This document shows positions 17,582 to 21,850 of a DNA stretch of 64,000 bases, in pieces (the first letter of the stretch is position 1; each line of letters begins with the position of its first letter). Location: the NCBI GenBank assembly GCA_963808625.1, contig CAWEHK010000033.1, forward strand, positions 32,001 to 96,000. Reading direction: 5' to 3'. Source of the stretch: an uncultured delta proteobacterium. GTDB lineage: Bacteria > Desulfobacterota > Syntrophobacteria > Syntrophobacterales > Syntrophobacteraceae. A program made the position numbers and the translations under genes. The notes below the pieces were generated by a model. That model was not told the DNA's origin, made no database searches, and was given only the letters and a program-made list of their open reading frames with translations.

Positions 17582-18433
17582 TCAGGGTTTTGCCAGGCAT
17601 TGGCGGACACTCGTCATCGGAAATCGCCTGCCCGGGCAATCCGTGGCTGCCCCCGGTGCATCACGGTGGCCGATGATGTGGGTAACTGGAATATGGTAAT
17701 AATCACATAGGGTTTTCAGGAGATAGTTCAGCGACTGAAGCTGACTGGCCGTGGGAGGTTCGGAATTGAAGTTCCCGACAAGGCCGATTCCGATTCCCTT
17801 CTCGTTCATTCCCGCCACATTGCAGTGCGCGCCGCCCTGTTGTTTGATCCAGCGGGGCGCCACTTCAATTTGACCGTCACCTTTCCCCAAGGTCCCATTA
17901 TCGATCAGGAAATGGTACCCCAACCCATTCCAGAAACCTCGGTCCTGATGCGAACGGTTGATGAGATAAGCCTTGCCGACATCGGTAGCGGTGTGGTGAA
18001 TGACGACATATTTCCACCGCGAGCTGGGGTAAAGCGCGATAACATTGCGAAGAGCTTTGGCATTTGGAATGACGAGCTTTTGGCCCTGGTGTATGGGATT
18101 GCCGGGTTTTAGAGAATTCGCCGTATAGATCGCCTCCGGGGAGACATCGTACATTCTGGAGATTCTCCAAACGGTTTCGAGCGGAGCCACTTCATGGATG
18201 ATGGTTTGGGTGGTCCCCGGGTCAACAAAGCATTTTTCTACAACCTTTGGGCCCACGTCAGAGGACTGAGAGGGTTTGGTGGGAGGCGGGAGGGAGCCGG
18301 TGGAAGAGGCGGACCCTCCGGGCGGCAATGTGGCAACCTTGTGGGTGCAGCCGGCTGGAACCAACATAATGAAGAAAACCAGCACGAAACTGACGGTCCC
18401 CCGGGAACAGAAGGAAAAGAAAGTCTTCATCAT
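17582..18433 (-). CDS. lipoprotein with LysM and N-acetylmuramoyl-L-alanine amidase (Amidase_2) domains
   Basis: Lipobox PAGC, HEVAPLETVWRISRMY LysM, VVIHHTA, GYHFLI, GAHC, GHRD..TDCPG. Confidence 0.9.
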   Translation of the reverse strand: MMKTFFSFCSRGTVSFVLVFFIMLVPAGCTHKVATLPPGGSASSTGSLPPPTKPSQSSDVGPKVVEKCFVDPGTTQTIIHEVAPLETVWRISRMYDVSPEAIYTANSLKPGNPIHQGQKLVIPNAKALRNVIALYPSSRWKYVVIHHTATDVGKAYLINRSHQDRGFWNGLGYHFLIDNGTLGKGDGQIEVAPRWIKQQGGAHCNVAGMNEKGIGIGLVGNFNSEPPTASQLQSLNYLLKTLCDYYHIPVTHIIGHRDAPGAATDCPGRRFPMTSVRQCLAKP

Positions 18434-18555: not shown

Positions 18556-18585
18556 TTGACAATCCCTTTTCTTTTTAGTTAGTCT
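18556..18585 (+). promoter_or_regulatory. sigma70-type promoter of the leader-aroF-tyrA unit
   Basis: TTGACA-N18-TAGTCT about 30 nt upstream of the leader ORF. Confidence 0.6.
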
Positions 18586-18615
18586 TCCGACCGAAACTGA
18601 AACCGAGGAGAGGTG

Positions 18616-18681
18616 ATGTTTACCAAGTATTACCGCTATTATTATTGCAGCGAAATTCCGGGGAGCGCTGGGGATATGTAA
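18616..18681 (+). CDS. Tyr-rich leader peptide MFTKYYRYYYCSEIPGSAGDM
   Basis: GAGGAGAGG RBS; 5 Tyr in 6 codons; upstream of DAHP synthase and prephenate dehydrogenase. Confidence 0.85.
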   Translation: MFTKYYRYYYCSEIPGSAGDM

Positions 18682-18713
18682 GGCTGCCGATTTATTTTAA
18701 GTGAGTGCATCGA

Positions 18714-18755
18714 AGCCGTGGGTGTCCCGGAGTGATCCCGCGGCTCTTTTGTTTT
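18714..18755 (+). terminator. attenuator terminator 1
   Basis: AGCCGTGGG...CCCGCGGCT stem followed by CTTTTGTTTT. Confidence 0.75.
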
Positions 18756-18776
18756 CAGATTCAATGAAAGAATTCG

Positions 18777-18813
18777 GGCCGTGGGAATCAAATTCCCAAT
18801 GGCCTTTTTTCTT
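18777..18813 (+). terminator. attenuator terminator 2
   Basis: GGCCGTGGGAAT-caa-ATTCCCAATGGCC followed by TTTTTTCTT. Confidence 0.8.
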
Positions 18814-18873
18814 GGCACAGAGCGTCCTGTCGAAGAGATGCCCTGGCCCTTCTTTCAAGGAGGTAAAACGTTC

Positions 18874-19888
18874 ATGATTATTGTATTGAAACCCGGACAC
18901 GAGGATGAGGATCTGCATCGGCTGGTAAGGCGCCTTGAAGACCTTGGCTTCCGAGCCCATATCTCAAAAGGCGAGCATCGGACCATCGTAGGGGCCATCG
19001 GGGATGAGCGCTCTTTACGAGAGGTTCCCCTGGAATCAATGCCGGGGGTGGAATCGGTATTGCCCATCCTTAAGCCTTACAAGCTGGTCAGCAGGGAATT
19101 CAAACCAGAAGACACCGTCATCAAAGTAGACGGACAGGAAATCGGAGGCCAAAAGATCCAGATTTTTGCAGGACCTTGTGCGGTTGAAAGCTCGGGAGGT
19201 TCTGGAGGAGATTGCTGAAGCCCTGCTCCCTTCGGGGGTTCATTTTCTCCGCGGCGGGGCGTTCAAACCTCGAACTTCGCCATACGCTTTTCAAGGCTGG
19301 GGTGAAAAGGGCCTTAAGTTTCTGGATGCGGTTCGGGAACGAACCGGAATGCTGGTTGTGACGGAGCTCATGGACCCCAGAGACACCGTCCTGGTGTGCA
19401 GATACGCGGATATCATCCAGATCGGCACCAGAAATATGCAGAATTTCAGGCTGTTGACGGAAGTGGGAAATATTGAGAAGCCGGTTATCCTGAAGCGTGG
19501 TATGAGCGCAACCATTAAGGAATTTTTGATGTCGGCCGAATACATTTTGGCACAGGGGAACGAGAGAGTCATCCTCTGTGAGCGGGGAATTCGGACCTTT
19601 GAAACCGAAACTCGCAACACTCTTGACATCAGCGCCGTTCCTTTGCTGAAACAGTTGACGCATCTGCCGGTGATCGTTGATCCAAGCCATGCAGTCGGTC
19701 GGGCGGATCTCGTTCCGGCAGTTTCCAAAGCGGCCATTGCAGCCGGAGCCGACGGCTTGCTTATAGAAGTGCACGTCAGGCCGGAGGAAGCATTCAGCGA
19801 CGGCCCTCAGTCGTTGCGGCCTCGGGCTTTTGACAAGATGATCGAGGAATGCCGCCTTGTGGCGACGGCGGTGGGGCGGACCCTTTAG
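18874..19888 (+). CDS. aroF: DAHP synthase type I-beta with N-terminal regulatory domain (frameshift near 19190)
   Basis: [49 protein letters not shown]. Confidence 0.94.
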
Positions 19889-20001: not shown

Positions 20002-21067
20002 ATGGATGCCCAACAGCACCCCCCTCATTTTCGGCCTGACCAGGAAGAAGGCGAACTGCTGCGCTGGGGACGCGGAAGAACGATCGGGATTATCGGTGGT
20101 AATGGCCAGATGGGCCAATTGTTCGGTCGTTTCTTTGAGACCCAAGGATATCAGGTGTTCGTCTCCGACCGTGACCCGGGTCATGACAACAAAGAGATCA
20201 TGCGAATATCCGATATGGTCCTTTTTGCGGTGCCGCTTCACGAGACGGTGAACATCATCCGGGAGCTTGTTGTGCATGCTCGCCCCGAGCAGCTGCTTAT
20301 GGATTTGAGCAGCCTGAAGGTCGGTCCTGTGCAGGCAATGTTGCGCTCTCCTTCATCCGTTGTAGGACTGCATCCCATGTTTGGGGGAAACATTTCGTCC
20401 TTTGCCGGGCAAACCATCGTAGCCTGCCCGGTGCGCATTGATCCCTTTCGAATGGCGCTGTCTGCGGCAGACTGTTTGAAAATCAGGGGATCCGGGTTAA
20501 GGAATGCAGCCCGGAAAAACACGATTACATGATGAGTATTATCCAGGTGCTGTTTCATGTGACCACCATGCTGACCGGTCAGGGTCTTGCGGGACCTGGA
20601 AGTAGATGTTGGCCGAAACCATGGAATTTACAAGCCCCAGCTACCGGCTGGAGATGAATCTCCTCGGCCGAATGTTTGCTCAAAACCCTGCCCTCTACTC
20701 TGCGATTACCCAAATGAATCCCGTTCACCCGGGAGGTTCTCGACCATCTTGAAGCGGGTCTGAAGGTTACAAGGAATGGTATGGCGCTGCCGATTTCCCG
20801 GCATTTGTGGATGACTTCAAAAGGAGTGCCGAACATCTGGGGGATTTTTGTGAATCGGCATTCGAGGAGAGCTCTGCACTCCTGGACTTTGCCGTCAATT
20901 TGGCCCGATCCAGAAAAGAGCGACCGAGCAACCGCCGGAAAAGGGCAGGGGGGTTAAGATTTTCTCACTCTTTTCAGCGACAACAAATCTTTCCAGACAA
21001 ACTCTTAGGCAGTCCTCACAATTGGAGGTCTGAGAACCCTTTTGGCAATATCGGGCAAAGGCGCTGA
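20002..21067 (+). CDS. tyrA: prephenate dehydrogenase (several frameshifts; 3' end uncertain, about 20960-21067)
   Basis: GIIGGNGQMG, DLSSLK, GLHPMFG, HDYMMSIIQ after frameshift. Confidence 0.85.
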
Positions 21068-21482
21068 ACCAGTCCAAGCCCGTACGGGGACACATCTTGA
21101 TGAATTCGAGAAAACGAACCAGACGATCGACGGCCATGGGGTCAATCGCGTGTTCAACACGGCAGGCATTGGCCTCAGCCTCTGGAGGATCCAGTTGCAG
21201 TGCCGAGATGAAGAATTCTTTGAGGGTTTCGTGGCGGCGGATGATATCCTGAGCAACCGTGCGCCCGGCGGAAGTCAAAGTGATGTAGCTATACGGACTG
21301 TAATTGATCAGCCCGCGACCCGCCAAGGCCTTGAGCGCCCCCGTTACCGAAGCGCGTTGAACACTCATCTGGTCGGCAATGTCTTTGGCGCGTGCCACGC
21401 GGTTAGACCGCTCCAGATGGTAGATGACCTCAAGATAATCTTCCAAGCTGGCAGAAAGCCCTTCCGGGAGATCCTGGATCAT
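20895..21482 (-). CDS. DtxR/MntR-family metal-dependent repressor with Cys-rich tail
   Basis: LSASLEDYLE, ASVTGAL, RRHETL, ACRVEH. Confidence 0.92.
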   Translation of the reverse strand: MIQDLPEGLSASLEDYLEVIYHLERSNRVARAKDIADQMSVQRASVTGALKALAGRGLINYSPYSYITLTSAGRTVAQDIIRRHETLKEFFISALQLDPPEAEANACRVEHAIDPMAVDRLVRFLEFIKMCPRTGLDWFSAFARYCQKGSQTSNCEDCLRVCLERFVVAEKSEKILTPLPFSGGCSVALFWIGPN

Positions 21483-21850
21483 AGCTGATGCCTTTTCGTA
21501 GTTTTTGATCACCGCTTGCACCTTATCCGCTTCCTCACGGCACGTCAAGTTATCCAGTTGTCCCCGAAGTCACGCGAAACCCTTTTTCATCCACGAATGG
21601 ACACGAAGAAACACCAAGCAGAGATGATCATCGATTTACTTCGGGGGGCAACCGCGAGGCTATCTGCCGCACCTCTGCGGCATCTCTCGGGAGGAACTGG
21701 AGAAAAGGCTGGAAGCTTATCAGGGCTCTCGTCGCCAGTCGGTCGCAGCTGATGGAAGACGTGACAGACCTTGCATAAGAGGCCTGTTGGCAAGACCGGC
21801 AGATCACGACACGGCCACCTCGCGCTCTCAGTGATGCGGGCGGCTCTCAT

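Follow-up and report, generated by a model that had tools for sequence, protein, structure and literature searches.

How can a single leader peptide govern two transcription terminators that stand one behind the other? The question is raised by a locus of an uncultured Syntrophobacteraceae bacterium (the window is the whole stretch of 64,000 nucleotides that was analysed), in which a short tyrosine-rich ORF is followed by two terminator hairpins, T1 and T2, and then by genes for DAHP synthase and prephenate dehydrogenase. An earlier note on this DNA had interpreted the arrangement as an attenuator sensing Tyr-tRNA, and had left the bypass of T2 unexplained. The promoter, the ribosome binding site, the leader ORF, the hairpins and the downstream genes that it named were all found where it had placed them, and for the bypass a specific answer with comparative support can now be offered, a relay helix between the two terminators. 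The locus is very probably a ribosome-mediated attenuator, which senses charged tyrosyl-tRNA and controls the DAHP synthase-tyrA genes. The full explanation, in which T2 of this Tyr-tRNA attenuator is switched off by a relay from the freed arm of T1, has in our estimate a probability of about 0.7.

The tyrosine leader and the genes behind it

All parts of the leader region lie on the forward strand. A sigma70-type promoter candidate (18556..18585) consists of the -35 hexamer TTGACA (18556-18561), an 18-nt spacer and the -10 hexamer TAGTCT (18580-18585); of the promoter proposed earlier the -35 element stood, the -10 element is weak. A consensus promoter and terminator scan of the window flagged neither this promoter nor T1 or T2; the rules of the scanner overlook long loops and bulges. 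A purine-rich RBS (18605..18613) precedes the leader ORF of 21 codons (18616..18681, ATG at 18616, TAA ending at 18681). The sensor run occupies 18628-18645, the Tyr codons are codons 5, 6, 8, 9 and 10, and the single Phe codon is codon 2. Segment A (18658..18703), the putative 5' strand of the antiterminator, extends from the 3' part of the leader to just past the stop codon and has the core GGGATAT (18671-18677).

T1 (18714..18755) is a hairpin (18714-18745) made of the 5' arm B (18714-18722), a loop containing the antiterminator target (18722-18734) and the 3' arm C (18737-18745), and it is followed by the U-tract CTTTTGTTTT, which is interrupted in the window. T2 (18776..18813) has the 5' arm D (18776-18788) and a bulged 3' arm E (18792-18805) in the hairpin 18776-18805, followed by the U-tract TTTTTCTT. 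The common start that had been seen in the two hairpins was borne out: GCCGTGGG is present in the 5' arms of both T1 (18715) and T2 (18778), and each hairpin is U-tailed. The fold of the 296-nt leader region has a z-score of -3.4, the hairpins T1 and T2 have -2.5 and -3.6. Before the gene there is a further element (18814..18863), composed of a variable third hairpin (18814-18848) and the RBS of the DAHP synthase gene (18857-18863). A role of the third hairpin as a translational switch was rejected because of its weak z-score (-1.75) and because of a 12-nt deletion at 18824 in contigs assembled from three runs.

The DAHP synthase gene (aroF/aroA-Ib, 18874..19888, forward strand) has an apparent frameshift near 19191. 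The prephenate dehydrogenase gene, tyrA (20002..20930, end approximate, forward strand), was recognized by NCBIfam prephenate dehydrogenase models, as a fragment below the cut-offs, and contains several apparent frameshifts. Both members of the aroF-tyrA pair claimed earlier are thus present, but the synthase is no orthologue of E. coli AroF, since it belongs to type I-beta (NCBIfam PRK08673, TIGR01361). Short-read contigs obtained independently from near-identical strains do not have the additional bases at 19191, ~20441, ~20470, 20581 and 20609, and the DAHP synthase of most relatives is an intact protein of 337 amino acids; sequencing errors are therefore the most likely cause of the frameshifts in both genes. 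In 27 of 30 loci the synthase gene is followed by a tyrA-like ORF; L001, L006 and L010 have another ORF in its place. On the reverse strand, a gene for a LysM-like/AmpD-like amidase lipoprotein (17582-18433) is divergent from the leader, and one for a MntR/DtxR-family regulator (20895-21548) is convergent with tyrA.

Tyrosine-rich ORFs of this kind are rare in the genome. Among 49,361 small ORFs starting with ATG (8-40 amino acids) only three have at least five Tyr per eight codons, and these are three copies of the window leader itself. The window segment ~4066-47248 recurs at G000:C33:146722-200874 and C37:22-36573, hence the region is present three times in the assembly, twice on one contig in opposite orientation. 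We considered the two further copies as paralogues and set this aside, because the syntenic blocks extend over tens of kilobases at ~74-82% identity. Although its contamination figure is 4.5%, the assembly is probably a chimera of congeneric organisms in one long-read bin, and as the extra copies more likely come from mixed congeneric genomes, they should not be regarded as independent regulatory copies.

Conservation in relatives, on which the earlier note had staked its reading, was found throughout the order. An orthologue of the DAHP synthase was present in 71 of 96 Syntrophobacterales genomes, and the closest named homologues belong to Syntrophobacteraceae/Syntrophobacterales. The sample comprised 72 upstream regions from 70 genomes of the order, including the two extra copies from the window's assembly and leaving out G057 and G077, whose matches lie near contig ends. 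A complete Tyr-rich leader was found in 71 of the 72 regions; in the 72nd (L005) the leader is cut by the contig end. At least four Tyr per eight codons occur in 69 of 70 scored leaders, and the 71 leaders contain on average 5.6 Tyr, 1.7 Phe and 0.3 Trp, with Tyr encoded 285 times by TAT and 115 times by TAC. As a control we took 72 loci of distant homologues of the enzyme outside the order-like group, two of them without an N-terminal match: of the 70 scored, two reached four Tyr per eight codons and none reached five. The signals upstream are kept as well, a TTGAC motif being present in 71 of 71 loci at no more than 130 nt from the start of the leader (median distance 60 nt), with a TAnnn[T/G] box 16-18 nt from the motif in just 29 of 71, and a Shine-Dalgarno match of at least four letters in 65 of 71. 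It must be noted that the genomes are kin, thus the locus counts overstate independence.

The length of the leader varies from 14 to 36 codons in the relatives and the peptide diverges outside the Tyr run. In seven loci (L003, L007, L008, L130, L135-L137) an early stop leaves a leader of 14 codons, and the segment pairing with T1 is retained 3' of the stop, a sign that in these loci the RNA, rather than the peptide, is under selection. A search of 251 genomes of the phylum with a degenerate DNA pattern gave four matches, two of them true members of the order; the pattern was too strict, it missed even the window and was uninformative on distribution. One of its matches, L151, was rejected because it falls inside a carboxyltransferase-like gene. 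Small ORFs rich in Phe, Tyr or Trp were seen upstream of DAHP synthase homologues also in L063, L065 and L070 (Chloroflexota/Anaerolineales) and in L050, L069 and L110, with a terminator following in L063 and L070.

Folding of the leader and a proposed pairing between the terminators

From the observed anatomy, conservation, complementarity, covariation and computed folds we infer the following mechanism. With tyrosine plentiful, the ribosome would translate the leader to its stop codon and cover segment A; T1 (B:C) would form and transcription would end there, and polymerases leaking past an intact T1 would be faced with T2 (D:E). Under tyrosine shortage the ribosome would instead stall in the Tyr run, and A would pair with the 5' arm and loop of T1 (A:B). 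The freed 3' arm of T1 could then capture the 5' arm of T2 as it emerges (C:D), and neither terminator would form.

The step at T1 was modelled with the ribosome as a mask extending 12 nt beyond the stalled codon, along the lines of a folding check that the earlier note had recommended, and in the window the expected switch was obtained: with the mask on the Tyr codons tested the antiterminator probability was ~1.0, with the mask at the stop it was 0 and that of T1 was 1.0. The antiterminator (segment A with the 5' arm and loop of T1) has a computed energy of -29.1 kcal/mol (z -2.65). Of the complementarity between leader and T1 described before, the pairing of GGGATAT (18671-18677) with GTGTCCC (18722-18728) was confirmed. 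The computed folds leave the TCCGGG register outside this helix, and base 18730 in the loop of T1, on which that register depends, varies in close strains.

In the relatives T1 was called in 70 of 72 loci (L146 was missed, L005 was unscored), and with the mask at the stop it wins in 69 of 70. When T1 is fully exposed, the antiterminator is favoured over it at equilibrium in only 41 loci, and the full switch was seen in 40 of 70. With the 3' end held 4 nt short, as the polymerase would hide it, the antiterminator forms 12.3 pairs in the real leaders versus 6.1 with shuffled linkers, the real value being higher in 67 of 71 loci. When leader and T1 were exchanged between genera, the cognate duplex was stronger than the average of the exchanged ones in 18 of 19 genera, some of the margins being tiny. 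The core antiterminator helix is 74.7% paired in a fixed-register alignment of 25 loci, because the pairing registers differ among families; its covariation score exceeded that of all 500 shuffles, which answers the call for covarying stems. Folded without a ribosome, 57 of 70 loci favour T1, whereas the window and most of its genus form the antiterminator instead. Taken together with the conservation of the leader, of TTGAC and of the RBS, the masked folds support the Tyr-sensing reading of the earlier note.

T2 was called automatically in 28 of the 72 loci (L111 is doubtful). The calls include every genome of the window's genus and all eight examined members of a second family, but none of the 34 loci of the largest genus and none of the 6 of a third family. 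As both 5' arms share GCCGTGGG, the 3' arm of T1 is complementary to the 5' arm of T2. The predicted relay helix (18733..18790) joins C (18737-18746) to D (18776-18785) with a flanking extension; it has 10 pairs between the arms in the window, one more than the own stem of T1 in that register, and a computed energy of -26.6 kcal/mol (z -4.55).

The comparative analysis of this helix used an alignment of 25 tandem loci; L111 and the two additional copies from the window's assembly were excluded. The relay is 97.3% paired (225 cells in 25 relatives), and neither this percentage nor the covariation score was reached by any of 500 shuffles. Two pairs have changes on both sides. The pair 18740:18782 is A-U in 15 loci, G-C in six, G-U in three and broken in one, and in five of the six G-C cases (L005-L008, L114) the 5' arm of T1 is unchanged, which indicates that T2 tracks the 3' arm of T1 and is no mere copy of its 5' arm. 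Contigs of near-identical strains, from three runs, show four substitutions and one deletion across the spanned parts of the leader stretch; the change at 18782 turns a wobble of the relay into a Watson-Crick pair and breaks a pair of T2 itself. Exceptions are L004, which has an internal C-A mismatch, and L170, where the relay is weak.

The computed folds favour the relay for as long as T2 is incomplete. In the window it is preferred until the last 2 nt of the T2 stem are exposed, and its probability is above 0.5 at 4 nt before the end of the T2 core in 24 of 27 Tyr loci. With T2 fully exposed it loses at equilibrium in 26 of 27; in the window the passage from relay to T2 is 8.2 kcal/mol downhill (-8.2), over a path barrier of 6.7. 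The relay would therefore have to hold kinetically. Kinetics matters also in the other direction: in 10 of 25 loci the relay can prevail at equilibrium over a T1 that has formed (median path barrier 9.7 kcal/mol), which would weaken T2 as a back-up, so that its value in this role would depend on kinetics. The relay helix is probably the working bypass of T2.

Twin terminators at other operons and the alternatives

The genome contains 44 tandem terminator-like pairs. Ranked by strength of cross-pairing, the top six comprise the three copies of the locus and three others, which follow leaders with Tyr, Trp and Phe codons. A Trp-run leader with cross-complementary twin terminators (G000:C21, ~131031-130717, reverse strand; L155, L159-L188) precedes a second DAHP synthase gene and trpEGDCFBA. 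A Tyr-run leader (G000:C10, ~70107-70309, forward strand; L157, L189-L218) stands before a gene for a LivK-like ABC substrate-binding protein, a weak match to PRK15404. A Phe-rich leader (G000:C52, ~44430-43987, reverse strand; L156, L219-L248) precedes a phenylacetate-CoA ligase-like (paaK-like) gene, for which TIGR02155 scored just below the cut-off, in an operon that also encodes a probable ACT-domain protein and an ABC binding protein. Twin terminators were found in 27 of the best 30 loci of each set, drawn from 42, 40 and 44 genomes with a match for Trp, LivK-like Tyr and Phe, respectively; the leader call was unreliable in 7 of these 90 loci, which were excluded when folds were counted.

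The Trp alignment is 97.7% paired for the relay, 91.2% for the own stem of T2 (with strong compensation) and 82.7% for the reciprocal pairing of the T1 5' arm with the T2 3' arm. The covariation score of the Trp relay lies within the shuffles (64 of 500), and with the 3' end held back the relay probability exceeds 0.5 in only 7 of 26 Trp loci.

Three other candidates in the genome were noted. A mixed Phe/Tyr leader with a single terminator (G000:C42, ~17907-17642, reverse strand; L158) precedes genes for chorismate mutase-prephenate dehydratase and shikimate-pathway-like enzymes, a Leu-run leader with a terminator stands before a leuA-like gene (G000:C2:52822, forward strand), and a Thr/Ile-rich small ORF is followed by a terminator-like hairpin (G000:C18:172734, forward strand). 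Among the best 30 loci with pheA homologues (61 of 111 phylum genomes matched), an aromatic leader with a terminator was found, besides the window genome, only in L260 (G205), from another family of the phylum, where a Phe/Tyr leader and a single GCCGTGGG-type terminator precede pheA; L256 has no terminator. Since pheA is often not the first gene of its operon, this survey sets no bound on the range of the relay.

The alternative that survives best, and which we still regard as unlikely, is that Tyr attenuation acts at T1 alone, and T2 is a duplicated hairpin that stops a fixed fraction of the polymerases or none, the cross-complementarity being a trace of common descent. The 44 of 72 Tyr loci without a T2 call would fit this, and so would the advantage of a fully exposed T2 over the relay at equilibrium. 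GCCGTGGG also opens single terminators, including that of L260, thus common ancestry does account for part of the similarity between T1 and T2. Plain duplication would let the relay and the reciprocal pairing decay alike, but the relay is the stronger of the two in 22 of 22 distinct arm sets of the Tyr loci, 19 of 21 of the Trp loci and 24 of 25 of the Phe loci; the transporter (liv) set shows no asymmetry (relay stronger in 12, reciprocal in 13 of 25). Counted as distinct types of substitution, the asymmetry is modest, differences in the 5' arms having kept the relay 19 times and broken it 12 times, and differences in the 3' arms having kept the reciprocal pairing 23 times and broken it 29 times. 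The G-C cases at 18740:18782, in which T2 follows the 3' arm of a T1 with a constant 5' arm, speak against mere descent, as do the retention of T2 at the three other operons and the covariation of its own stem.

The roles could also be divided the other way, with T2 as the sole real terminator, T1 as a protector hairpin like those of the multi-hairpin his attenuator, and the relay helix as the antiterminator. The hisL leader is a six-segment cascade of hairpins with one terminator, and its geometry is the nearest to that of the relay. This arrangement predicts the same helices and the same covariation, and the interrupted U-tract of T1 in the window would suit it. We consider it improbable, since most loci without T2 have no terminator other than T1, and the U-tract of T1 is kept in the tandem loci.

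The nature of the sensed amino acid is a separate matter. Leaders of the relatives interleave Phe codons with the Tyr run, and the C. glutamicum AroR peptide, according to PMC11802643, has a Tyr codon yet gave no response to tyrosine, so the leader might sense aromatic amino acids generally, and chiefly Phe. The composition of the leaders makes this quite improbable: Tyr outnumbers Phe by 5.6 to 1.7, while the paaK-like leaders contain on average 7.3 Phe and the trp leaders 3.9 Trp, the lone Phe codon of the window is codon 2, and the operon ends in tyrA. That the small ORF is incidental or encodes a functional peptide, with a protein regulator binding the hairpins, is scarcely credible: the GCCGTGG motif is highly conserved and the genus of the window favours the antiterminator also in the absence of a ribosome, but only the Tyr run of the peptide is conserved, using both TAT and TAC, the position of the stop moves, and which amino acid the run consists of depends on the operon under control.

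Returning to the attenuator with a relay, we lean towards the wider view that Syntrophobacterales possess a natural cascade of RNA strand displacement, with two intrinsic terminators in series under the control of a single ribosome-sensing leader, as a standard module of the aromatic regulon. With the same reservation, the module would serve the DAHP synthase-tyrA genes, the trp operon, the Tyr-sensing transporter and the Phe-sensing phenylacetate-CoA ligase operon.

Comparison with known attenuators

The proposed mechanism is that of classical attenuation. As described in PMC11802643, PMC2659441 and PMC3896937, the trpL, pheL, hisL and leuL leaders of E. coli and Salmonella likewise have a short upstream ORF in which cognate codons form a run, an antiterminator overlapping the 5' arm of the terminator, and an intrinsic terminator before the first gene. 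In contrast to these, the sensor codons are here for Tyr, and two U-tailed terminators, linked by the predicted relay, stand under one leader. The E. coli aroF-tyrA operon is repressed by TyrR and encodes a type I-alpha AroF, unlike the type I-beta enzyme of the window. Rfam searches of the window (E up to 10) returned nothing relevant among the leader families (Trp, Phe/pheA, His, Leu, Thr), T-boxes and riboswitches, and at the gathering score the sole match in seven loci was a tRNA.

It is instructive to compare the locus with C. glutamicum aroR-aroF (Neshat et al. 2014), the nearest tested case, where a leader peptide precedes a DAHP synthase gene (PMC11802643, PMC4046766). In the account of PMC11802643 its Phe-Tyr-Phe sensor responded to Phe and not to Tyr; the leader studied here has a run of ~4-7 Tyr and stands before DAHP synthase and tyrA. 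The idea of a tyrosine attenuator is itself not new, because the 5' UTR of Shewanella aroF was tabulated as a predicted Tyr-tRNA-sensing attenuator (PMC2659441, Table 3). Putative attenuators before aroA-tyrA were listed in Vibrio and Thermus (PMC1173090, Table 7), and in Acholeplasma uORFC-13-1 is a Phe-codon ORF with a terminator before aroF (PMC8632094). The descriptions in these sources, as far as they bear on the four cases, differ from ours in that they do not include a Tyr-codon run with covariation, Syntrophobacterales, or twin terminators. Two terminators in series were reported for the rimP leader (Naville and Gautheret 2010; PMC2965389), in an account that describes stems with inverse motifs and no leader peptide, whereas here there is a leader ORF and a 5' arm shared by the terminators. 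A wide survey of attenuation by Lopatovskaya et al. (2010) discusses chains of helices, according to PMC4833913. Our literature search found no description of the Syntrophobacterales leader or of a relay from terminator to terminator, and an earlier Syntrophobacter prediction may still stand in Lopatovskaya et al. (2010) or in the leader-gene tables that accompany PMC4833913.

Among the attenuators that we found described, only one with a Tyr codon had been tested, C. glutamicum aroR, and in the published account it ignored tyrosine, which makes the conserved Tyr-codon run of the present leader a clean and directly testable case. The relay explains how one sensor could control two terminators and predicts specific compensatory mutants. 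Leader codons can also annotate unstudied genes: the Tyr run before the LivK-like binding protein suggests an importer of tyrosine or aromatic compounds, and for the phenylacetate-CoA ligase the Phe run in front of its gene suggests a function in Phe supply. If the proposed mechanism is true, the leaders that respond to tyrosine would include the first demonstrably Tyr-specific leader-peptide attenuators, the cascade would shut off its operons more tightly than a single terminator and remain fully inducible, and the relay would be a natural multi-layer RNA switch like those that synthetic biologists construct.
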